From the NCBI GenBank assembly GCA_035632375.1, contig DASQGY010000037.1, positions 5,610 through 69,609 on the forward strand: DNA of 64,000 nt, given 5' to 3'. Origin of the DNA: Bryobacteraceae bacterium (GTDB lineage: Bacteria > Acidobacteriota > Terriglobia > Bryobacterales > Bryobacteraceae). Positions 1 to 31,498 of the stretch are shown here, one piece after another. Below the pieces are notes generated by a model that was given only the letters and a program-made list of their open reading frames with translations, was not told the origin of the DNA and did no database searches. Both the position numbers and the translations under genes were made by a program. Every line of letters starts with the position of its first letter. Position 1 is the stretch's first letter.

Positions 1-693
1 CGAGAAAGGGATTCCGGAGGCATGGGAGACGATGCCGCGGCGCACCGGCTCGCGGACCGTGTACAACAGAAGCGCGACCAGCAGCCCGGGTAAACCCACC
101 GCGAGAAAGATCACCTGCCAGGGGCGCACCGATCCTACGATAGGCAGTATGTAGGCTTCCTGCACCGAGGCGAGGCGCACGATGATTCCACCGGCCAGAT
201 AAGACATTCCGGCACCGATGTAGATGCCCATGGAGTAGACGCTGATGGCGGTGGCCAGCCTTTCTCTGGGGAAATAATCGGTGATGAGCGAATAGGCCGA
301 CGGCGAGAGGGACGCTTCACCGACGCCGACGCCGATGCGCCAGAGCAGCATCTGGGCGAAGTTGCGAGCGACGCCGCACATCGCGGTGAAAAAGCTCCAG
401 CCCACCAGGCCGGCGGCGATGATGGAACGGCGGCTGCGGGTGTCGGCCAGGCGGCCCAGCGGGATGCCGCAGAAGGTGTAGAAGACAGCGAAGCCGAAAC
501 CCATCAGGATGCTGACCTGGAGGTCGGTGATGCCGAGATCGCGGCGCAGGGGGCGCACCAGGAGGCTCATGATCTGGCGATCGATGAAGGAGAAGACGTA
601 GACCAGCGTGAGCACGCCCACGATGTACCAGGAGTAGCCGGGTGAAGGATAAGGCGCTTCGGTGGGGATTGGCGCGGGGGAGGACTGGGCCAT
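1..693 (-). CDS. MFS transporter, N-terminal part (gene runs off the left edge of the window)
   Basis: Absent from the ORF track because no stop codon lies inside the window. My translation of the reverse strand from the ATG at complement 691-693 reads MAQSSPAPIPTEAPYPSPGYSWYIVGVLTLVYVFSFIDRQIMSLLVRPLRRDLGITDLQVSILMGFGFAVFYTFCGIPLGRLADTRSRRSII... It shows consecutive hydrophobic helices and an MFS motif-A-like loop (GRLADxxxRR). Confidence 0.7.
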   Translation of the reverse strand, partial: MAQSSPAPIPTEAPYPSPGYSWYIVGVLTLVYVFSFIDRQIMSLLVRPLRRDLGITDLQVSILMGFGFAVFYTFCGIPLGRLADTRSRRSIIAAGLVGWSFFTAMCGVARNFAQMLLWRIGVGVGEASLSPSAYSLITDYFPRERLATAISVYSMGIYIGAGMSYLAGGIIVRLASVQEAYILPIVGSVRPWQVIFLAVGLPGLLVALLLYTVREPVRRGIVSHASGIPFS

Positions 694-706
694 AGGTTGG
701 GGAATT

Positions 707-774
707 GTAACAGGTGCTAGGTTTTAGGTGCTAGGTGTTAGTAACAGGTGCCAGGTTTTAGGTGCTAGGTGTTA
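707..774. repeat. Tandem direct repeat, 2 x 34 bp (GTAACAGGTGCTAGGTTTTAGGTGCTAGGTGTTA), one mismatch
   Basis: Read directly. Unit 1 is 707-740 and unit 2 is 741-774, differing only at 718 (t) versus 752 (c). Each unit contains the sub-repeat AGGTGCTAGGT. Located in the intergenic region between the MFS start and the stop of the redoxin gene. Confidence 0.9.
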
Positions 775-780
775 GGGGAG

Positions 781-809
781 GATGCGGCTGCGCCGCGTCT
801 CTTTTTTTT
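781..809 (+). terminator. Intrinsic-terminator-like hairpin plus T8 tract, oriented on the plus strand
   Basis: GATGCGGC-TGC-GCCGCGTC forms an 8-bp stem with one G.U pair and is followed by TCTTTTTTTT (T run 802-809). Both flanking genes are on the minus strand, so this orientation does not serve them. Confidence 0.4.
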
Positions 810-1386
810 ACGGGCTCCTCTTGGCGTGGGTGGCGTGGGTTGCTGTGGGCTTTTTTGCGCCTTCGGCTGGTTCTTTTAGTAACGTCTCGATCATTTCGCG
901 CCAGTAGGGTTCCTGGAGGAGTTTTTCTTCGCCCAGAGGCGGGGTTTGGGAGCGGATGTTGCCTTTGCGATCGATCCAGACGATTTGCGGGACCACGTAG
1001 CGTTCCATGGCTGAGAAGCCGAGAAATTCGAGGACTGGCATGTCCGCGCTGAAACCTACTGGATACTTGATCACGTAGGTTCGCACCAAGTCGTCCACGT
1101 AGAGATTGGCCATCGGGTTGAATGCTACGCCCAGGGGTTGGAAGCCGCGTGCGCCGTATTCGTCGAAGAGCTTGCTGAACACTTGCGAGGCGTGCTGGCA
1201 GTGCGGGCAGGTGGTGTGGACAAAGGTGAGAGCAATCACTTTTCCGCGAAAGCTTTTGAGTGGGATCTCGGTTCCATCCTTGAAGTGGATGGTGAAATCG
1301 GGAGCGGGGCGCGGGACCGGCATTGCCGCCGGCAACAGTAGCGCAGCGCCTAGAATTCCAACCACGGCCGCCAGGACCAAACGCAT
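808..1386 (-). CDS. Secreted thioredoxin-fold thiol:disulfide oxidoreductase (TlpA/ResA/redoxin-like)
   Basis: 192-aa ORF with a signal-like N-terminus (MRLVLAAVVGILGAALLLPAA) and a CxxC active-site motif in a redoxin context (VIALTFVHTTCPHCQH). Confidence 0.8.
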   Translation of the reverse strand: MRLVLAAVVGILGAALLLPAAMPVPRPAPDFTIHFKDGTEIPLKSFRGKVIALTFVHTTCPHCQHASQVFSKLFDEYGARGFQPLGVAFNPMANLYVDDLVRTYVIKYPVGFSADMPVLEFLGFSAMERYVVPQIVWIDRKGNIRSQTPPLGEEKLLQEPYWREMIETLLKEPAEGAKKPTATHATHAKRSP

Positions 1387-1404
1387 CGAATGACTCCTTA
1401 ATTC

Positions 1405-2607
1405 CTAGTGTAAACCTTCAAGCTGCCGGACGGTATTGCCTTCGATCCAGAGCCGGAATCGGCCGGAATCGCCGCGGCCTTCGAGTTTGGACGCGGTATC
1501 CGACTCCCACTGGATTGTCTTCCATTTGCCTTGCATCACGCGACGGTATAGCGAGACGTATTTCAGCGCCGCATCTTCGGAATCCCAGGTGGAGGCAAAG
1601 GCCAGCACCGGATATTTGGCGTGCTTGTGTTCGAGCAATTGATACGAACCGCCGTCCAGATGCGCGGCGGCCTTGCTGCCTTCATCCTGGCCGGCGTATT
1701 GGGACAGCAAAACGCGGAGATCGAGTTCGCCGAGGCTGCCTTCGGCCAACTTGCGGAACTGGCGCGATTCGGGAACTTCGGGCGGATCGGGAAGGTGCGG
1801 CGCGCGATGCGCCAGGTATTTTTCCGGATGCAGGATCTGCTGCGTACTGACGGGCGGGTTGCGAAATACTTCGGCGAAAGAATCGCGTCCGAGTTTTCGA
1901 AACAACGCGTTCTGGAACAACATGCCCTGCGTATAGGGAAAGACCAGCGATTCGCGAATGTAGAGCGGCGCTTTGGCGAATACCGGATATTGTTCGGCGG
2001 AGGTGGAGATGCTGTTGGTCATCAGGTCCAGCATCTTGTCGGGCGCTTCCGGTGGGCCGCCGTTTAGTTTGGACATGTAAGCGGTCATCAGCCAGGAGGC
2101 TTGGCCTTCCATCACTGCGAGGCGGGCGGTGGAGCCATCGTCGCTGCGCGCGCCCTCATGGATGTAGCGGCCCAGGTGAAAATGCTGATCGGCGAGAGCG
2201 TGGGCCAATTCGTGCACCAGCGCGATCCGCTCGTCGGAGCTCGCACCGCTGCCTTCCAGAATGAAGAGGCGCTTCTTGTTGTAGTCGTAGAAGGCCGCGG
2301 CCTGTTCGGTGAGCAGATCCACGGTGCTTTGGCGGAGATCGAAATCCTGGGGGATGAGTCCCAGCATCTTGAGCGTCAATTCTTCGGCGCGCAGATCGGA
2401 GGGTTTGATGGCTTTCTTGATGCGATCGTCGAGGTAACGCCGCAACTGGTCCTTGTTGAGCATCCCGTAGGGGACATCGTGCAGGAAACGGAGGCCGGTG
2501 ATTTCCGAGAGGCTCTGCTCCATGGCGCCGATTTCGGAGAATAAGGGCCGCTGGCCGGCGGCGCGAAGGAGCAAGGCGGCCAGGAGGACGAAGAGGAATC
2601 GTTTCAT
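1405..2607 (-). CDS. Secreted putative zinc metalloprotease (HExxH, gluzincin-like)
   Basis: 400-aa ORF with a signal peptide (MKRFLFVLLAALLLRAAG). Contains the HExxH motif (LVHELAHAL), followed about 30 residues later by MEGQASW, a candidate third zinc ligand Glu. Confidence 0.65.
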   Translation of the reverse strand: MKRFLFVLLAALLLRAAGQRPLFSEIGAMEQSLSEITGLRFLHDVPYGMLNKDQLRRYLDDRIKKAIKPSDLRAEELTLKMLGLIPQDFDLRQSTVDLLTEQAAAFYDYNKKRLFILEGSGASSDERIALVHELAHALADQHFHLGRYIHEGARSDDGSTARLAVMEGQASWLMTAYMSKLNGGPPEAPDKMLDLMTNSISTSAEQYPVFAKAPLYIRESLVFPYTQGMLFQNALFRKLGRDSFAEVFRNPPVSTQQILHPEKYLAHRAPHLPDPPEVPESRQFRKLAEGSLGELDLRVLLSQYAGQDEGSKAAAHLDGGSYQLLEHKHAKYPVLAFASTWDSEDAALKYVSLYRRVMQGKWKTIQWESDTASKLEGRGDSGRFRLWIEGNTVRQLEGLH

Positions 2608-2843
2608 GCGACAATAGAATCTTCATGGTAAACGAGAAAGCAGACGAGAAACAGTATTCCGCCGTATATCAAGGCAGCGGCACGTTCATCATCAGCAAGC
2701 CCAAGCGCAAGTCCGGCAAGCTTCGCCAGTCCAGGCTGAAGAAGCCGCAACGGGGCGGGCGGAAGTAAGACCGGGTACCGGTAGTTCCCCGTACTTCTTC
2801 CCTCGAGACAGATCTTCGGGCGGCTATACAATGTAACTGGCGG

Positions 2844-3587
2844 ATGGTTTCTATTCGCAAAGTTACGCTCGGACTGCTGCTGGCCTCGGCGCTTTCCGCG
2901 CTATTTCTGGCTGTTTTCCTGTTGTGGAACTATCGGGAGTGGCCGCAGGCCGCGCTGCGTCCGCCCTATGCCGCCGATTTGGATGAGCGGACCCGGCAAT
3001 TGCAAGAGCGGGTGGAGACGCTCAACAAGCGGGCCAGCGACATGGAATTGATGGTGCTGCTTCTGCTGGGCGCTTCCGGACTGTATTCGATCGTGTTCAT
3101 CGGCTCGTCATACGTGAGCGCGATGAGGTTTGCGCGGCAGGCGGACCGGTCCATTGCAAAAATCAACCACAAGATCGGACTGTCCCTGGGCGACCTGCGC
3201 GAGCTGAAGGCCGAGGTTCAGCGAACACTTCTCGACCAGTTGAATGAGAGCCAATCTCGGATGACCGCGGAGTTGGCCGGATTGTATCGAAGCTTCGCCG
3301 CTGTTTGCGCTTCCACCGATCCGGCGCGGGCGATTGCTTGTCTTGATCGCGTGCTGGCGCTTGCGCCGTCGGCGGAGGTTCATTACGAACTGGCGTGTTG
3401 TCACGCGGCCGCGCATGATTTCGAGAATGCGGTTCGGGAGTTGGCGGCGGCTTTTCAGGAGCATTCGAAGGCGCTGGATGAACGGCTGGCTCGGGATATC
3501 GAGGAGGGTGGGAAACTCTACGAGTTGGCGTCGACGGCGCCGTTTGATAAGGCGGTGAATGACGTGCTGTTGACGGTGGTGCTGTAG
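2844..3587 (+). CDS. Hypothetical membrane-anchored protein with helical, TPR-like C-terminal part
   Basis: 247-aa ORF with two predicted TM segments (LGLLLASALSALFLAVFLLW and LMVLLLLGASGLYSIVFIGSSYV), followed by an Ala/Leu-rich helical region. I recognise no family. Confidence 0.5.
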   Translation: MVSIRKVTLGLLLASALSALFLAVFLLWNYREWPQAALRPPYAADLDERTRQLQERVETLNKRASDMELMVLLLLGASGLYSIVFIGSSYVSAMRFARQADRSIAKINHKIGLSLGDLRELKAEVQRTLLDQLNESQSRMTAELAGLYRSFAAVCASTDPARAIACLDRVLALAPSAEVHYELACCHAAAHDFENAVRELAAAFQEHSKALDERLARDIEEGGKLYELASTAPFDKAVNDVLLTVVL

Positions 3588-13509: not shown

Positions 13510-14946
13510 ATGATCTTCCCCTTGTTGCTTTTTTTCGCGCCGCCGGCATCGACGGCGGACTTGGACGCTTCGCTCAAACGCTTCATCGACGTGCTGGCCA
13601 TCGTTCAACGCGAAGCGGCCGATCCGGTGAACACCGAGCAGGCCATGTACCAGGGCGCGATTCCCGGAATGCTGCGGCGGCTGGACCCGCATTCCATCTT
13701 TTTCGATCCGCAGCAAAACGAGCAGCTCAAGGAAATGGAGCGGTCCGAGCGCAAGGGGTTTGGAACCGTGGTGTCGGTGCTGCCGGGGCGCGTGATCGTA
13801 TTGCAGGCGCTGCCGGGGACGCCGTCGGCCAAGGCGGGGTTGCAGCCGGGCGATGAGATTGTGGCGGTGAACAATGTTGCACTGGCGCGGTTGAATTTCG
13901 AACAGATCGTCGGATTTTTGAGTGAGTCGCGGCAACATCAGGCGCAGCTTGTGGTGCGGCGGCCCACCAATGTCCGGATGCTGCAGTTCGTGCTGGACCC
14001 TGCGCTGGTGGACTCGCCCAGCGTGGACCGGGCGTTTCTGGTGCGGCCGGGCGTCGGCTATATACGGCTCAGCGGGTTCGATCCGCAGACCGCGCGGCAA
14101 TTCAAGGAAGCGATCGAATCGCTGGGCGGCGAGAAGCTGAAGGGACTGGTTCTGGATTTGCGCGACAATCCGGGCGGCGTGGTGCAGACCGCGCTCGAGT
14201 CTGCGTCCTATTTCCTGAAGCCGGGACAGAAGATTCTCAGCGTGAAGGGACGGAGCGTCGCGGGGCAGGATGTCGATGTGCCGAAGACCGCGACACCATA
14301 CGCATTCCCGGTTGCCGTGCTGGTGAACGCGAAGACGGCAAGCGCCGCGGAGATTGTCAGCGGCGCGTTACAGGATCATGACCGCGCGGTGATCCTGGGT
14401 GAGCCCAGCTACGGCAAGGGTCTGGTGCAGAACGTTTTTCCACTTTCGAGCAACACCGCCGTGGCGCTCACCACCGCGTTCTATTACACTCCCAGCGGGC
14501 GATCCATTCAAAAGCCGCTGGCCACCGGCCAGTTGGAAGTGGAGAAGCAGTCCGAGGAGTTCAAGACCGATTCGGGCCGCGTGGTGTTGGGCGGTGGCGG
14601 CATCCAGCCGGATATCAAGATGCAACCGGAATCGCCCAGCCGTCTACGTATCGTGCTGGATGCCAGCGGCGTGATGACTTCTTTTGCTACGGATTACACG
14701 CAGAAGAATAAGATCACCGATCGCTTCGAGGTGACGCCTTCCATTCTGGAGGATTTTCAGGTCTACGCGAGCGATCGCAATATCCAGCCCGGTGTGGCGG
14801 AGTGGGCGGCGGTGCGCGCGTGGCTACAAAGCCGGCTGAAGCAGGAGATTTTCAACCAGGCGCTGGGCGTGGCCAAAGGCGACGAAGTGGAAGTGCAAAG
14901 GGACCCGCTGGTTCGCGCCGCCGTGGACGCCTTGAGAATTCGGTAA
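13510..14946 (+). CDS. Carboxyl-terminal processing protease (peptidase S41) with PDZ domain
   Basis: PDZ segment (GTPSAKAGLQPGDEIVAVNN) and S41 catalytic blocks LVLDLRDNPGGVV and NAKTASAAEIVSGALQDHDRAVILGEPSYGKG. The start codon immediately follows the ddl stop. Confidence 0.9.
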   Translation: MIFPLLLFFAPPASTADLDASLKRFIDVLAIVQREAADPVNTEQAMYQGAIPGMLRRLDPHSIFFDPQQNEQLKEMERSERKGFGTVVSVLPGRVIVLQALPGTPSAKAGLQPGDEIVAVNNVALARLNFEQIVGFLSESRQHQAQLVVRRPTNVRMLQFVLDPALVDSPSVDRAFLVRPGVGYIRLSGFDPQTARQFKEAIESLGGEKLKGLVLDLRDNPGGVVQTALESASYFLKPGQKILSVKGRSVAGQDVDVPKTATPYAFPVAVLVNAKTASAAEIVSGALQDHDRAVILGEPSYGKGLVQNVFPLSSNTAVALTTAFYYTPSGRSIQKPLATGQLEVEKQSEEFKTDSGRVVLGGGGIQPDIKMQPESPSRLRIVLDASGVMTSFATDYTQKNKITDRFEVTPSILEDFQVYASDRNIQPGVAEWAAVRAWLQSRLKQEIFNQALGVAKGDEVEVQRDPLVRAAVDALRIR

Positions 14947-16097
14947 TGCCCGGGCCGGATGTTGCAGAGCTAGCGCGGCAGGCGATGTTGTTTGAGAGCC
15001 GCGTGGATCGGATAAAAGCCGCGCTGGCGCCGCAAGGGATCGTCTGGTATCCCTACCGGACCCTGCTGTCGTTCGCCGTTTTCGACAAGCTGCTCACCGG
15101 ACCTCGCCGCCAACTCCTGGACATCGCGGCGGGCGACCCGATTCTCGACTTGGGTTGCGCCGACGGTCTGCTGTCATTTTTCCTGGAGTCGCTCGGGCAA
15201 AATGTTTTCGCGATCGACAATCCTCATGTCAATCACAACCAGATGCGTGGCTTCGACGCACTTCGTGCGGCGCTGAATTCTTCGGTCCCGTTCGAAGCCG
15301 TGGATCTGGACGCGCAATTCCGCCTCCCCCAGGATGTTTTTGGTCTGGCCATGTTCCTGGGCGTTCTTTATCACTTGAAGAATCCGTATTACGTGCTCGA
15401 GGCGCTCGCCAAGCGCGCACGATATTGCTTGCTGAGCACGAGAATTGCCCAGCGTACGCCGCAAGGCAATCCGATGAAGGACGAGTCGCTCGCATATTTT
15501 TTGGCGCCCAGCGAAACGAATAACGACGCAACCAACTACTGGATCTTTTCGGAAACCGCCCTGCGCACGCTGCTGGATCGAACCGGCTGGACGGTCCGCG
15601 ACTTTCAAACTACGGGATTCACCGAGGGCTCCGAACCGAGCCGGGAGAATCGCGATGAGCGCGCTTTCTGCCTGCTTGAAAGCCGCCACTGCCCGCGCTA
15701 CTCAGTGCATTTGCTGGAGGGTTGGCACACGCTGGAACAAAACAGTTTTCGGTGGACGGAGCGGCGCTTCTCTATCGAAATAAAGCGCCCGCACCTGATC
15801 CAGTTTTCCACTTTCCGCTTCGATTTCCGTCTCCCCTCGCCCGGCCCAGCGACGCTGTCAGCCAAAGTGAACGGGGCGGAGATGCCGCCTGCTACGTTCG
15901 AGACGGAAGGGGAGCAATCCTACAGCGTTCAGGTCCCGCCGCAAGCGCTGCAGGCCGCCGCGATCCGCATCGACTTCGTGATCGACAAATGGCTACCCGC
16001 CGGCGATCGAGACGAACGGGAGTTGGGATTGCTGGTGGCGTTCTGGCGGCCGGGGCTGGAGGGTCCGGATTCGCTACTGCCATTCAAATTCTCGTGA
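14946..16097 (+). CDS. Class I SAM-dependent methyltransferase with an extra C-terminal domain
   Basis: SAM motif I is ILDLGCADGLLSFFLESLG. The start is reassigned to the ATG overlapping the ctpA stop (TAATG at 14944-14948), giving MPGPDVAELARQ... The longer ORF in the track (from 14802) lies inside the ctpA coding region. Confidence 0.75.
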   Translation: MPGPDVAELARQAMLFESRVDRIKAALAPQGIVWYPYRTLLSFAVFDKLLTGPRRQLLDIAAGDPILDLGCADGLLSFFLESLGQNVFAIDNPHVNHNQMRGFDALRAALNSSVPFEAVDLDAQFRLPQDVFGLAMFLGVLYHLKNPYYVLEALAKRARYCLLSTRIAQRTPQGNPMKDESLAYFLAPSETNNDATNYWIFSETALRTLLDRTGWTVRDFQTTGFTEGSEPSRENRDERAFCLLESRHCPRYSVHLLEGWHTLEQNSFRWTERRFSIEIKRPHLIQFSTFRFDFRLPSPGPATLSAKVNGAEMPPATFETEGEQSYSVQVPPQALQAAAIRIDFVIDKWLPAGDRDERELGLLVAFWRPGLEGPDSLLPFKFS

Positions 16098-16121
16098 GAG
16101 CAGCTAGCGCGAGCCGACCTT

Positions 16122-16149
16122 GTAAGCCTTCGAGAACTTGTTACGCGAG
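16122..16149. repeat. Left copy of a 28-nt imperfect direct repeat flanking the TIR cassette (relic 3' end of the MBL gene)
   Basis: GTAAGCCTTCGAGAACTTGTTACGCGAG versus GTACGCCTTTTGGAACTTGTTACGCGAG at 17127-17154. They are 24/28 identical with a perfect 16-mer core. On the minus strand the left copy reads ...ASRNKFSKAYKVGSR*, mirroring the MBL C-terminus ...NSRNKFQKAYRH*. Confidence 0.6.
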
Positions 16150-16221
16150 GCCCCGACGGGTGGCCGCACGATTGACGTACAACCGCTAGTTCTCGTTTAT
16201 GATTGCGGTAAACTGGGCGAC

Positions 16222-16644
16222 GTGGCAAAGCGTCGGGCTAAGGACCACTACCGGGTATTCTTCAGCCACGCGCACAAGGATCGTTGGATCGCAAAACAAT
16301 GCGTGAGGCTCATTGAGGAGACCGGCGCGGGGCAAGTGAGAGTATTCTTGGACGAGTGGGAGATCGAAGTCGGACAATCGATCCCTGACTCGGTTCGCAC
16401 GAACATCGAGCAGTGCGATGAATTCGTTGTCTTGCTCAGCCCGTATTCAAAAGACCGGCCGTGGGTGCTTGCAGAGATCGGCGCAGCCTGGGGCCTGCAA
16501 AAGCCTATCATGGTAATAGTCGACAAAGTAGGACCGAAGCAGATGCCGGAGATAATTAACTCACATAAGGCAATCGACCTGAATGACTTCGACGAATATC
16601 GCGATCAGCTCTCGAAGCGGGTTAGGCAAAGGCGGCAATCATGA
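16222..16644 (+). CDS. Stand-alone TIR-domain protein (first of pair)
   Basis: Fits the TIR_2-like pattern over its whole length: YRVFFSHAHKDRWIAK...VRVFLDEWEIEVGQSIPDSV...CDEFVVLLSPYSKDRPWVLAEIGAAWGLQKPIMVIV. The start is uncertain: GTG at 16222 (used here) or the track's start at 16138, which lies inside the flanking repeat. Confidence 0.8.
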   Translation: MAKRRAKDHYRVFFSHAHKDRWIAKQCVRLIEETGAGQVRVFLDEWEIEVGQSIPDSVRTNIEQCDEFVVLLSPYSKDRPWVLAEIGAAWGLQKPIMVIVDKVGPKQMPEIINSHKAIDLNDFDEYRDQLSKRVRQRRQS

Positions 16645-17084
16645 GTGACGGCAGACATTCAAAGCGGCGCGGCGCGATCAAGGTATTTCTCAGCCACTCG
16701 AATGTAGATACGGAAGTCGCACGGAAGGTCCGCAACTTGCTGGTACACCGAACCAGCGCCCAAGTCTTTATGTCCGAAGATCTCAACGCCGGCGAGAAAT
16801 GGGAGACCAAGCTCCGTAATGAATTGGCGTCAGCCGATGTGGTTCTAGCACTCCTGACGCCGCAATCTGTCGATTCGAGTTGGGTGTTGCTTGAAATCGG
16901 GGCTGCGTGGGCGCTTGAGAAACCTATCATCCCGGTAATCACCAGACGCGATGTCTTGAACAAAATGCCGGTTTCACTCGAAGGAACCAGGACCATTGCA
17001 CTGTCCGACATAACGAGCGCGGAGAATGCAGGCAAGTTTGTGGCTGCTTTCGAGGACAGCTTGTCGACCAGTCAAATCGCCTGA
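16641..17084 (+). CDS. Stand-alone TIR-domain protein (second of pair)
   Basis: IKVFLSHSNVDTEVARKV...QVFMSEDLNAGEKWETKL...ADVVLALLTPQSVDSSWVLLEIGAAWALEKPIIPVI. A paralogue of the upstream gene. Its ATG overlaps the upstream stop (ATGA). Confidence 0.85.
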   Translation: MSDGRHSKRRGAIKVFLSHSNVDTEVARKVRNLLVHRTSAQVFMSEDLNAGEKWETKLRNELASADVVLALLTPQSVDSSWVLLEIGAAWALEKPIIPVITRRDVLNKMPVSLEGTRTIALSDITSAENAGKFVAAFEDSLSTSQIA

Positions 17085-17117
17085 CCAGGGGATCCCTCGC
17101 GGGTCGGTGCTTCGGCT

Positions 17118-18140
17118 CTAATGCCGGTACGCCTTTTGGAACTTGTTACGCGAGTTGACTACGGTGAACGACCCGTTGGATTGGGCGGTTAACTCCAGAT
17201 ACTTTCCTTCGCAGAACTCGTCGACGTTGGCGATGAACGTGTCCGGCACATTATGCTCTTTGCCGCCGGCCATAGCGTAGTGGAGTTGCCAGAGATCCTC
17301 CAGGCCGGGCGAATCCTTGACGATTTGCCAGGCATCGGGACTGCCGCCTTTCTTTGCTCCGTTGTTCATGATGGCCACTCGCGGGTGGAGGGCCTGCACC
17401 AGGGCCGGCGAACCGGATTGATTCAAACCGTGGTGCGAAGTCAGGTAGACATCCACGGTCCCGATCGGGTTCGCGGGGCACATCAGCGCCAGTTCCTTGT
17501 TCCAGGTGAGATCGCCGAGATCGATGAGCCGGAAGCTGCCGTAGGTGATCAGGACGCCGAGCGAGCGCGCGTTCTCGGTGGCGTCGTCTTCTTTCTTTGG
17601 GGAGGAGGCGCAGAAGGGGTTCGGCTGCCCACCACCGGTCAGTGGAGACGAGATGACTTCGCCAGCCGCGGTGAGCACTTGAACGGTAATGCCCTTGATC
17701 GGGATCATGTCGCCGGGCTTGACGACGATATGTTGGGCAGCCTTATTCAGGGTCTTGACGTAGTCGCTGTAGTCTTCCTTCACCACCTTGGCGTCTTCCA
17801 TGTTGGGGCCGTGATCGACAAAGGCGCCAATCTTCATGCGGTTAGCCAGTTGCGGGACACCACCGACATGGTCGCGATGGTAGTGGGTGATGAGGACGTA
17901 GTCGATCTCCTTGATCTTGGCGGCTTTGGCGGCTTGCACGATGCGCTCGGCATCGCGGCCGTCGAAGCCGCGCCAGCCGGTATCGATCAGGAGGGATTGG
18001 CCGGAGGGCGAGACAATGAGGGTAGCTTGTCCCCCTTCGACATCGATAAAGTAGATCTGGAACGGTCTAGAGTGCGGGATCGGCAGGGCCAAGGCCGAGA
18101 GAACCATGGTCAGCAGAAGGAAAGCAGAGCGCATCAACAT
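17118..18140 (-). CDS. Secreted MBL-fold metallo-hydrolase (ComEC-C-terminal-like)
   Basis: Signal peptide MLMRSAFLLLTMVLSALA; metallo-beta-lactamase motif LITHYHRDHVGG (HxHxDH) and a downstream LTSHHG. Confidence 0.85.
   Translation of the reverse strand: MLMRSAFLLLTMVLSALALPIPHSRPFQIYFIDVEGGQATLIVSPSGQSLLIDTGWRGFDGRDAERIVQAAKAAKIKEIDYVLITHYHRDHVGGVPQLANRMKIGAFVDHGPNMEDAKVVKEDYSDYVKTLNKAAQHIVVKPGDMIPIKGITVQVLTAAGEVISSPLTGGGQPNPFCASSPKKEDDATENARSLGVLITYGSFRLIDLGDLTWNKELALMCPANPIGTVDVYLTSHHGLNQSGSPALVQALHPRVAIMNNGAKKGGSPDAWQIVKDSPGLEDLWQLHYAMAGGKEHNVPDTFIANVDEFCEGKYLELTAQSNGSFTVVNSRNKFQKAYRH
17127..17154. repeat. Right copy of the 28-nt direct repeat (inside the true 3' end of the MBL hydrolase gene)
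   Basis: See 16122-16149. The perfect core GAACTTGTTACGCGAG occurs at 17139-17154 and at 16134-16149, 1005 bp apart in direct orientation. Confidence 0.6.
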
Positions 18141-29895: not shown

Positions 29896-30876
29896 CTACA
29901 CGCGTGCGGCGAGCGGCAATACTTTTTCCCGGGTTAGCGGCGCCAGCTCAATCTGGCCGGGCGAGTGAGGATCGAGCCAGAGAATCTCGTCGATTTCGGA
30001 AGCGGCGCTGATTGGACCTATGAGCTCCACTCGGTAGAGTGCCGCTTCCACAACACAGTCTCGTTCGTTCGCCGCCGGAGCCGTGAACGTGCCGAGGAAT
30101 GTGGGGCTGCCGGGCCGTACCGAACATCGCAATTCCTCGCTGAGCTCACGCTCCAAAGCGGCAAGGTGAGATTCCGAATCCCGCATCTTTCCGCCAGGCT
30201 GCATGAACGCTCGCGTTCCTCTCTTGCGGACCAGCAGGACGCGTTGCGCTTCGTCCTGCACCAACGCGGCTACGATCGGAATGACCGTTTGCGGCGGCTC
30301 GGGTGCGTTCGACGCTCGCAGCCATTTCGCCGCGGGCGGGGAATAGTTGCGGAACTCTTTCAGGATCGCCGCGGGCTGCGTATCGAATACCAGCATGGAC
30401 GCGTGCTCGGGACGGAGAAAGCCCTCGCCCGTCATCCGCTCGATCATGTTCCGCAGCGCGTCGAAATAGCCGTTGGTATTCAGGAAACCGCAAGGCTTAT
30501 GGTGGATGCCGAGCTGCGCCCAAGTCCACTGCTCGAAAATCTCCTCCAGGGTGCCGGCTCCGCCGGGCAGAGCGATGAAGCCCTCGGACAGCTCGGCCAT
30601 TCTGGTCTTTCGTTCGTGCATGGTCTCGACGGTGTGGAGTTCGCTGAGGCCAGTATGTTGAATTTCCCGCTCCACAAGCGCCCGCGGCATGACACCAATC
30701 ACCGCGCCACCGGCGGCTAGCGCGGCGTCAGCGAGCGCACCCATCAGGCCGACGCGGCCCCCGCCGTAAATCAAATCGATGTTGTGCGCGGCGAGGGTTC
30801 GCCCCATCTCCTGGGCGGCATTCACATAAAGGGCGTCATTGCCTGAGTTCGAACCACAGAAGACACAGATTCGCAT
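29896..30876 (-). CDS. LOG-family (TIGR00730) nucleotide phosphoribohydrolase fused to a C-terminal Nudix hydrolase domain
   Basis: LOG motifs: MRICVFCGSNSG, YGGGRVGLMG, LPGGAGTLEEIFE. The C-terminal ~130 aa carry a near-canonical Nudix box, GGKMRDSESHLAALERELSEELRC (Gx5Ex7REUxEExxU). Confidence 0.85.
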   Translation of the reverse strand: MRICVFCGSNSGNDALYVNAAQEMGRTLAAHNIDLIYGGGRVGLMGALADAALAAGGAVIGVMPRALVEREIQHTGLSELHTVETMHERKTRMAELSEGFIALPGGAGTLEEIFEQWTWAQLGIHHKPCGFLNTNGYFDALRNMIERMTGEGFLRPEHASMLVFDTQPAAILKEFRNYSPPAAKWLRASNAPEPPQTVIPIVAALVQDEAQRVLLVRKRGTRAFMQPGGKMRDSESHLAALERELSEELRCSVRPGSPTFLGTFTAPAANERDCVVEAALYRVELIGPISAASEIDEILWLDPHSPGQIELAPLTREKVLPLAARV

Positions 30877-30903: not shown

Positions 30904-31341
30904 TTATTGCATCGCCCGTACCCGCGCCGAAAACGCCTCGTACGCTTTCGGATTGCCCCGATTCATGAAATCGATTGCCGCCTTCGCCACTGTCTCCATG
31001 TTCGCCAGGATCTTCGGATTCTTGGCTGCGGTGCGCCATTCCGGTACGAAGTCGCGCACCTTTTCCCAGACGAACAGCAACTCGTTGCCGCTTTGCAGGA
31101 ACAGCTCCTGATGCAGGACGCCGGAGGTGATGAACGACGCGGCCATTTCCCAATACGTGACCACCATTCGAAAGAAGGCATCGGCTTCCGAGCCCGGCGG
31201 GCACATCGCCTCGCGCTCCGCCATGGTGCTGGCGTGGAACTTGCCGAACCATTTGCGAGCCTCGCGCAGTTTCTCCTCGCGGCGCATGTCGTAGAGCTTC
31301 AGAATCAGATTCACGTCTTCGTAAGTTGCGGGTGTTTCCAT
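30904..31341 (-). CDS. Hypothetical conserved-looking helical protein (145 aa)
   Basis: Start reassigned to METPATYEDVNLILKLYDMRREEKLREARKWF... (complement 31339-31341, preceded by GGAGAG). The longer track ORF (to 31440) runs into the intergenic repeat. Confidence 0.55.
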   Translation of the reverse strand: METPATYEDVNLILKLYDMRREEKLREARKWFGKFHASTMAEREAMCPPGSEADAFFRMVVTYWEMAASFITSGVLHQELFLQSGNELLFVWEKVRDFVPEWRTAAKNPKILANMETVAKAAIDFMNRGNPKAYEAFSARVRAMQ

Positions 31342-31402
31342 ACTCTCCAGTGTAGTTCGGCGGAGAAAATCCACGGGCGGCGCGCACCACATCCTGGGAG
31401 GG

Positions 31403-31498
31403 TTGCTGAAAAAGGCTTGCTTGCAGGCTGGAGGATCCACAGGCTAAAGCCTGTGCTACCTAACTCCTGGTACAGCCTGTGAAAGGCTTTTTCAGCAA
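31403..31498. repeat. Nested palindromic repeat: ~27-nt imperfect inverted arms around the CACAGGC-taaa-GCCTGTG hairpin
   Basis: The left arm TTGCTGAAAAAGGCTTGCTTGCAGGCTG pairs with the right arm CAGCCTGTGAAAGGCTTTTTCAGCAA. The central 23-mer CACAGGCTAAAGCCTGTGCTACC (31438-31460) is identical to 9137-9159. Sits just upstream of dprA. Confidence 0.7.

Follow-up and report, generated by a model that had tools for sequence, protein, structure and literature searches.

A two-gene TIR cassette inserted at the 3′ end of a hydrolase gene in Bryobacteraceae: a candidate effector-less conflict module

Surveys of bacterial TIR immunity have centred on operons that combine a TIR gene with an effector gene, and one survey explicitly discarded the stand-alone TIRs. 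In the Thoeris system of Staphylococcus two TIR proteins cooperate, where ThsB1 binds the capsid, which is the trigger, and activates ThsB2 (PMC12578639). For restriction-modification (R-M) genes, 'insertion with long target duplication' has been described, where small inserts without mobility genes lie between long and often imperfect duplications (e.g. 44/46) and empty sites are found (PMC2853133). Here, we have analysed a cassette of two overlapping TIR genes, TIR-A and TIR-B, at the end of a gene for a metallo-β-lactamase (MBL)-fold hydrolase. It lies in a stretch of 64,000 nt (hereafter the window) from a Bryobacteraceae bacterium (GCA_035632375.1, contig DASQGY010000037.1, positions 5,610–69,609 of the forward strand), and an original prediction made from the sequence had drawn attention to it. 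A limited literature search found nothing relevant on a described bacterial TIR–TIR-only system.

We observed that the cassette was inserted into the MBL gene, and an empty site in a relative demonstrates this event. Beyond the insertion, we read window 16150–17126 as a ∼1-kb horizontally mobile two-gene operon, which would encode a heteromeric, effector-less TIR NADase module acting in defence and/or addiction. We put the probability of this reading at roughly 0.55.

Insertion of the cassette at the 3′ end of the MBL gene

The empty site was reached through homologues of the methyltransferase gene on the left of the cassette, which at 84–90% identity gave informative contigs. In one of the loci fetched for comparison (these carry L numbers), L162 (GCA_030841365.1), ctpA, the methyltransferase, a gap of 6 nt, an MBL gene of 343 aa and DUF4870 follow each other, and the TIR genes are absent. 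The junction of L162 reads ...TGAcagcagTTAgcgcgatccggcctt[GTAAGCCTTCGAGAACTTATTGCGCGAG]ttgactacggtgaacga, which is the left flank of the window, a single copy of the repeat (in brackets) and the right flank of the window. The 12-nt arm in L162 is identical to that of the left (relic) copy in the window, and its MBL protein ends in ...SKAYKAGSR* (asterisk, stop), being 3 aa longer than the MBL protein of the window. In the window, the displaced end ...SKAYKVGSR* lies beside the methyltransferase stop and the present end is ...QKAYRH*. The closest MBL orthologues also have relic-like C-termini, ...KVYKVSGK* or ...KSYAAGAR*.

As L162 has one repeat copy and a relic-type gene end, ∼1 kb (977 bp) has been inserted in the window lineage and the MBL gene has been re-terminated. 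The original prediction had proposed a ∼1 kb TIR–TIR insertion into the 3′ end of the MBL gene that supplied a replacement gene end, and had suggested looking for the empty site in related genomes; the structure of L162 agrees with this proposal exactly. Therefore, we concluded that the cassette entered the MBL gene at its very 3′ end, with a 28-bp target duplication, and that it supplied a new gene end. A set of 80 MBL-orthologue loci from reference genomes (≤75% identity) was uninformative for the empty site, as none has the TIR pair and none has the methyltransferase adjoining the MBL gene. An exact look-up of the window MBL protein returned no record.

The direct repeat bordering the insert (Table 1) was found as claimed, with 24/28 matching positions, an exact 16-mer and a spacing of 1005 bp between the copies. 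Read on the minus strand, the right copy contains the live MBL end, ...NSRNKFQKAYRH*, and the left copy the relic, whose stop is 7 nt from the methyltransferase stop; this too is how the prediction had read them. The 16-mer is not a dispersed repeat. It occurs twice in the window, where 0.05 copies would be expected (0/100 shuffles reached two), and the 165 fetched loci have it at no place other than the equivalent junctions of L001, L165 and L082. In its 12-nt arm the right copy departs from the ancestral one, among other changes by a whole codon, TCG(S)/CAA(Q). Between the two window copies, the differences comprise one synonymous change and one whole-codon Ser/Gln change, and Gln is common at this position in the MBL orthologues.

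The present gene end stems from the right end of the insert, where the complement of CTAATGCCG supplies CGG CAT TAG (R-H-*), the two final codons of the MBL gene with its stop. A YTAAT motif was observed at this end (window 17113–17122) and at two other sites (L129/L132/L086 and L101/L157), and its complement forms the stop (NAT-TAG/TAA) of the convergent flanking gene in each case (..RH*, ..GAD* and ..SGD*). YTAAT may mark a conserved end of the cassette through which target genes are re-terminated, or its recurrence may be a coincidence. At the other end, an element of ∼16 nt with the family consensus TGCGnTAMACTAyG lies 25–35 nt before the TIR-A start codon, and in the 27 loci aligned it is the sole conserved non-coding portion of the cassette. 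This element would probably serve the cassette as a promoter (−10) region of its own; a scan of the cassette for sigma-70 promoters and terminators called nothing over the background, and did not call this element.

The composition of the cassette is also different from that of its surroundings. GC content at third codon positions is 0.64 and 0.63 in the two cassette genes versus 0.69–0.79 in the neighbours, in line with the A/T-richer third positions claimed for the cassette, and the overall GC content dips to ∼0.53 versus ∼0.60.

The cassette occupies the same site with the same junctions in L165, L082 (a fragment) and L001, and both repeat copies are present in L165 and L082. In L163 and L164, the right-hand neighbour is another one. 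For the methyltransferase gene, the lineages of the window, L165 and L162 are about equidistant (86–87% nucleotide identity). The window and L165 share 97% identity over the coding regions of the cassette, compared with 86–87% in the flanks, and the identity profile steps at the cassette borders. Codons differing synonymously from L165 amount to 20/289 in the cassette, compared with 128/481 in the genes for the methyltransferase and the MBL hydrolase on either side (Fisher p = 2e-12; about 4-fold lower in the cassette). The two copies of the cassette also differ by a 59-nt indel, which lies immediately within the left end (window 16158–16162 versus L165 1669–1727).

Separate insertion events in the lineages of the window and L165 are unsupported, as the two have both junctions in common, with the 59-nt indel lying inside the left end. 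The shared junctions together with this indel instead argue for one founding insertion at the MBL site, and the data point to recombinational spread after it.

Table 1. Coordinates of the cassette, its repeats and the adjoining genes in the window
Feature	Position	Strand	Remarks
Inserted cassette, 977 bp	16150–17126	+	Between the two repeat copies; absent from empty site L162
Displaced original MBL 3′ end (relic ...ASRNKFSKAYKVGSR*)	16105–16149	−	Stop complement 16105–16107; left repeat copy 16122–16149
Conserved upstream element TTATGATTGCGGTAAAC	16197–16213	+	Alignment of upstream regions, 27 loci
TIR-A	16222–16644	+	140 aa, single TIR domain; W81 at 16462–16464, putative catalytic E85 at 16474–16476
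TIR-B	16641–17084	+	147 aa, paralogous single TIR domain; W81 at 16881–16883, E85 at 16893–16895
Insert right end	17085–17126	.	33-nt spacer + CTAATGCCG; not in empty site L162
Right 28-nt repeat copy	17127–17154	−	Live MBL codons ...NSRNKFQKAY
MBL-fold secreted hydrolase, target gene, 340 aa	17118–18140	−	Pfam Lactamase_B; re-terminated; uninterrupted allele 343 aa
Class I SAM methyltransferase, left neighbour	14946–16097	+	Stop 6–7 nt from the MBL stop before insertion

Recurrence of the pair and its proposed mode of spread

When metagenome contigs were searched with a profile of the TIR-A family, 80 loci were obtained; in essentially all of those that extend far enough downstream, a TIR-B-type gene was found 3′ of TIR-A in the same orientation. 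The flank contexts vary by clade: between proB and proA, after aldehyde dehydrogenase, after hypF, convergent with hrpB, beside ffh, and others. The unit of TIR-A followed by TIR-B occurs at many unrelated sites on the chromosomes of other bacteria, typically at the 3′ ends of genes; the original prediction had proposed to look for the pair in other contexts. All-against-all clustering of the flank open reading frames (ORFs) gave no conserved third gene, only clade-specific housekeeping genes (proB, proA and aldehyde dehydrogenase). No integrase or transposase adjoins the pair in any long locus, and no relative of the pair was found among the IMG/VR viral contigs; the pair is neither an integrase-borne island nor phage-borne.

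The family is modest in size yet widespread. Among 1.84 billion representative proteins, a profile search gave ∼70 clusters at E ≤ 1e-30, and members occur in Bryobacteraceae, Pyrinomonadaceae, Thermodesulfovibrionia and many soil and peat metagenomes. The top summed scores of the TIR-A profile belong to giant proteins with 3–7 tandem TIR_2 domains, often followed by WD40 propellers (P0357, P0363, P0376, P0397 and P0398); therefore, related TIR domains occur also as fused multi-TIR arrays. In L083, L091, L103, L116, L140 and L147 the matches to TIR-A or TIR-B are split across frames, these being either decayed copies or assembly errors. In L125, an ORF at 319–2163 (+) combines AA_kinase and PUA domains (proB-type) with a subsequent restriction endonuclease domain of the MvaI/BcnI type. 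Between this ORF and the TIR pair lies another ORF (2160–3419), proA comes after the pair, and the whole is a small multi-cassette islet in a proBA operon.

Besides the window, flanking repeats were found at four sites: 40 nt (37/40) at the hrpB 3′ end in L113, 37 nt (33/37) at the aldehyde dehydrogenase 3′ end in L141, 30 nt (27/30) at the hypF 3′ end in L089, and 32 nt (28/32) directly after the stop of a convergent TIR-domain protein in L110. The copies at these sites are spaced by 998–1121 bp, with scores of 20–31 versus ≤12 for the shuffled controls. At all the repeat-bearing sites one copy is, or abuts, the live end of the flanking gene and the other is a relic across the cassette. In the convergent protein of L110 (6921–8513, −; 530 aa), the TIR_2 domain is N-terminal and the C-terminal part is long and uncharacterised; the repeat begins at the stop of this gene. 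The same target genes were also seen to be reused across genomes, namely the hrpB 3′ end in L113 and L090 (host proteins 55% identical) and the hypF 3′ end in L089 and L103 (87%). These may be either old insertions or repeated use of a site.

The sequences of the repeats are unrelated among the five sites, and because they differ, the repeats are target-derived duplications and not an att core borne by the element. This modifies the original prediction, where the duplication was called att-like. Direct repeats and a replacement gene end are indeed present, in the manner of elements that target gene 3′ ends, and the cassette might on this ground be regarded as the remnant of a site-specific integrative element, with the repeats as attL and attR and the integrase lost or acting in trans. 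However, such a remnant is highly improbable, given an insert of just 977 bp, five sites with wholly different repeats that have no common att core, and the lack of an integrase or transposase by the pair in any long locus.

The closest described phenomenon, by analogy, is the insertion with long target duplication of R-M cassettes (PMC2853133). The likeness (Nobusato 2000; Furuta 2010, PMC2853133) lies in a small defence-type cassette without a mobility gene, placed between housekeeping genes, with imperfect target duplications specific to each site and an empty site in a relative. Furuta et al. (2010) required an insert of <20 kb, without mobility genes and absent from a related genome that aligns with the repeat, and a duplication of >30 bp. 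The present insert has 977 bp, no recombinase and the empty site L162. The duplications measure 28 bp in the window (below this limit), 30 bp in L089 (at the limit), 32 bp in L110, 37 bp in L141 and 40 bp in L113. Unlike the R-M cases, the cargo is a TIR–TIR pair, the duplications of 28–40 bp are at the low end, and the inserts are found consistently at gene 3′ ends. A DNA-breaking activity, moreover, is not expected of a TIR–TIR cargo.

The mismatches between repeat copies bear on how the cassette may have moved. The copies differ at six positions in L113 and L089 taken together, and each of these is a synonymous third-position change. We considered whether an originally exact duplication had simply decayed to give the mismatches, and judged this unlikely, as the L113 and L089 differences are all synonymous and the window has a whole-codon S/Q swap at a position that is variable among orthologues. 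From their sequences, the repeat copies look like two orthologous alleles rather than a decayed exact duplicate. In the proposed course of events, a founding insertion at a gene 3′ end would duplicate the target, and homologous recombination of the host would then spread the cassette among diverged relatives; excision and Campbell-type re-integration through the repeat may be an alternative route. Spread by host recombination would explain the synonymous and variable-codon differences between the copies, and also a cassette that is less diverged than its flanks.

The two TIR proteins

The ORFs of TIR-A and TIR-B are both present on the plus strand and overlap by ATGA, as described originally, and TIR-B is probably translationally coupled to TIR-A through this overlap. 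For TIR-A, we take the GTG start at 16222 (alternative TTG at 16138), the position at which 35 homologues have their N-terminus. Both proteins match Pfam TIR_2 (PF13676) well over its cutoff of 28: TIR-A with 69.3 bits (E = 5.6e-19) and TIR-B with 68.9 bits (E = 7.5e-19). Weaker Pfam matches of both are to TIR and ThsB_TIR. The top PADLOC matches are generic ThsB models (E = 1e-10 to 1e-8), and neither protein reaches a curated cutoff in NCBIfam, where the Thoeris type III model ThcB4 gave 27 and 36 bits versus a cutoff of 220. The two proteins are paralogues of each other (BLASTP 34% identity, E = 3e-20; hhalign profile–profile 99.6%).

AlphaFold2 (AF2) models built from the family alignments had a pLDDT of 86.5 and a pTM of 0.82 for TIR-A, and a pLDDT of 82.4 for TIR-B. 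In Foldseek comparisons with the PDB, almost all of the top 50 matches of each model are TIR domains. The best ones are the SARM1 and SPARTA TIRs for TIR-A, and TIR-1/SARM1 and SPARTA for TIR-B (TMq 0.6–0.71). BtpA, AbTir and BtTir rank below SARM1/TIR-1 and the SPARTA TIR-APAZ, the ThsB structures rank lower, and the RPS4/RRS1 TIR heterodimer is also among the matches. We can assign with confidence a flavodoxin-like TIR fold to both modelled proteins. The description of the two as single TIR domains, and as paralogues, is thus borne out by the domain matches, the models and the alignments.

The motifs WVLAEIG and WVLLEIG were found in the pair. In phmmer alignments, W81 and E85 of both proteins fall on the W-x3-E motif of BtpA and BtTir. 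The AbTir residues of this motif are W204 and E208, where the E208A mutant is inactive, and the W of the motif is reportedly informative for the cyclase activity (Manik et al.). Both proteins therefore have the conserved Glu at the position of AbTir E208 and SARM1 E642, where the original prediction had placed a catalytic residue. In the families, E85 is kept in 71/72 members of TIR-A and in 60/67 of TIR-B (D in 4 and Q in 2). TIR-A has many invariant positions, and TIR-B evolves faster, with 32–42% identity where TIR-A has 50–60% (largest distances).

The fold superfamily of TIR domains also includes nucleoside 2-deoxyribosyltransferases (NDTs), and the pair might consist of housekeeping enzymes of nucleotide metabolism, NDT-like or N-glycosidase-like. 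Both proteins have matches to the NDT family PF05014 under its gathering cutoff of 28.8 (TIR-A 23.8 bits, TIR-B 28.3 bits), many TIR-B homologues carry the JGI label 'nucleoside 2-deoxyribosyltransferase', and a 2′-deoxyribosyltransferase and a CMP N-glycosidase appear further down the Foldseek lists. However, TIR_2 scores far higher (69 bits) and the top structural matches are TIRs. Furthermore, the distribution of the pair is patchy and horizontally mobile, its composition is foreign, and it is found neither in the 80 related MBL loci nor in the empty-site relative. We regard a housekeeping role of this kind as quite improbable, and the pair is not a bona fide nucleoside deoxyribosyltransferase.

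Effector search, proposed function of the pair and its meaning

We annotated ten genes at 10–22 kb of the window, together with PADLOC/Pfam tallies of 39 further genes. The cassette lies among genes for arginase, Ddl, an S41 protease, the methyltransferase, the MBL hydrolase, DUF4870 and M28/M20 peptidases, in agreement with the housekeeping-type neighbourhood reported at the outset. No SIR2, Macro, STING, CARF, ThsA or similar gene was found in the window, as judged from all the 12 families matched by PADLOC and from the 25 of 59 Pfam families listed, and none stands beside the pair; the lack of an adjacent effector had likewise been predicted. Other window genes, none of them near the cassette, include DprA beside topoisomerase I (TopA), Ku, an IS1595-family transposase and glycine-cleavage genes. 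At 29896–30876 (−), 13 kb from the pair, a gene encodes a LOG/TIGR00730 domain (SLOG-type, PGGxGTxxE) fused to a C-terminal Nudix domain, and a DUF4760 gene (30904–31440, −) adjoins it. By its domains, the LOG-Nudix gene is potentially relevant to the metabolism of ADP-ribose (ADPR) or of a nucleotide signal. No homologue of it was found in any of the 165 fetched loci. Among 150 flank ORFs searched with PADLOC and Pfam, the only defence genes were a few R-M methylases and two TIR proteins, so the association of the pair with known defence genes or islands is weak.

By analogy, the pair would work most like the sensor/cyclase pairs of Thoeris or like effector TIRs. As in the Thoeris pairs (ThsB1/ThsB2, multi-ThsB loci and type III), at least two small stand-alone TIRs are placed side by side and keep the catalytic Glu; one TIR of Thoeris can recognise the trigger and activate its partner (PMC12578639), and the top PADLOC matches are ThsB. 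Unlike in Thoeris, no ThsA or other effector is beside the pair here or in ∼80 loci, and the structural neighbours are effector-type TIRs. For Thoeris types I, II and IV–XI, which have an effector gene in the TIR operon (SIR2-SLOG, Macro-TM, caspase-like and others), no such gene was found beside the pair or in the window tallies, nor as a conserved neighbour in the 80 loci. For type III, the ThcB4 scores fall far short of the cutoff, and the sole LOG/SLOG-like gene is 13 kb off and is absent from the other loci. The locus therefore lacks the adjacent effector of every Thoeris type, and the non-Thoeris composition first proposed for it holds.

The pair might still act in Thoeris-like signalling, where TIR-A and TIR-B, as counterparts of ThsB1 and ThsB2, would make a signal of the cyclic ADPR type for an unlinked effector, e.g. 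the LOG-Nudix protein. This would fit the ThsB matches in PADLOC, the two cooperating TIRs of Staphylococcus (PMC12578639), the type III systems that join several TIRs with an SLOG effector, the cyclase-informative W of the W-x3-E motif, and the presence of a TIGR00730 LOG-Nudix fusion within 13 kb. Against it, the two-gene unit moves to unrelated genomes and sites, with no conserved neighbour in ∼80 loci, and the LOG-Nudix gene has no homologue in the fetched loci. The low ThcB4 scores, structural neighbours that are effector-type TIRs and not ThsB, and window tallies without ThsA, Macro or other effector-type families also argue against it. We consider this alternative unlikely.

The fold, the W-x3-E motif and the best Foldseek matches are those of effector TIRs (SARM1/TIR-1, SPARTA TIR-APAZ and AbTir/BtpA). 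NAD-consuming TIRs (SARM1, SPARTA and AbTir filaments) form the active site through TIR–TIR assembly. Effector TIRs require such an assembly for activity, and a heterodimeric pair could provide one. The pair differs from effector TIRs in that these have sensor domains (ARM-SAM, APAZ/Ago or coiled coil), whereas its sole partner is a second TIR paralogue; identity to them is ∼20%. A paralogous TIR pair composed of an executor and a regulator or sensor is also known from the plant paired receptors (RPS4/RRS1 TIR heterodimer). Plant TIRs, unlike the present ones, are domains of large NLRs, and this likeness is an analogy only.

From the sequences, an effector-less two-TIR conflict module is plausible. 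A minimal two-TIR module for defence or toxin immunity, as suggested in the original prediction, would agree with all the observations, among them the conserved catalytic Glu and the lack of an effector in the window and of a conserved third gene in ∼80 loci. In the mechanism that we propose, TIR-A and TIR-B would form a heteromeric assembly that cleaves NAD+ (or a related nucleotide) and is its own effector. In this assembly, the obligate catalytic subunit would be TIR-A, which is highly conserved, and the faster evolving TIR-B may be the regulatory or trigger-sensing partner, which completes or gates a head-to-tail TIR active site. This division between a catalytic TIR-A and a regulatory TIR-B is suggested by conservation levels. 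The role would be an abortive-infection-type defence and/or a post-segregational 'addiction' that stabilises a selfish cassette. A more specific form of the proposal, an autonomous two-TIR immune (or addiction) system that combines sensing and NAD+ depletion without a ThsA-type effector, and travels as a ∼1-kb 3′-end-inserting cassette with a 28–40-bp duplication, is tentative, and we hold it possible rather than probable.

Addiction might also be the whole function. In such a toxin–antitoxin-like arrangement, one TIR would be an NADase toxin and its paralogue a stoichiometric inhibitor, and the cassette would be purely selfish with no anti-phage role. Two small, translationally coupled genes with an ATGA overlap have a layout that fits type II toxin–antitoxin pairs. 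The spread of the cassette is solitary, mobile and islet-like amid housekeeping genes, with a weak defence-island association, and it has its insertion signature in common with R-M cassettes, which behave as addiction modules. However, the catalytic Glu is present in both partners, which is unusual for an antitoxin, and no known toxin–antitoxin family was matched. We think pure addiction has a small chance of being correct; it also overlaps the reading of the pair as a defence and/or addiction module and does not exclude that reading.

Several observations weigh against the reading of the cassette as a mobile, effector-less NADase module. The Glu is kept in both subunits, so that only conservation speaks for a catalytic/regulatory split. 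The pair is mostly found amid housekeeping genes, and few loci have R-M genes or another TIR protein nearby. About 55/60 testable loci have no detectable flanking repeat, some copies look frameshifted, and the window repeat is just under the 30-bp criterion of Furuta et al. Finally, the window and L165 have the same junctions and may go back to a single old insertion followed by recombination, not to repeated insertions.

If the reading is true, the pair would be the smallest TIR-based conflict system, and a tractable model for the gating of heteromeric TIR assemblies, in parallel to ThsB1/ThsB2 and the plant paired TIR receptors. In its more specific form, the proposal would also extend the mobility by 'long target duplication' from restriction-modification to TIR-based immunity. 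The empty site, the five independent sites with target duplications and the synonymous differences between the copies provide unusually clean evidence on the way in which recombinase-less defence islets get into the housekeeping regions of soil Acidobacteriota and spread there.

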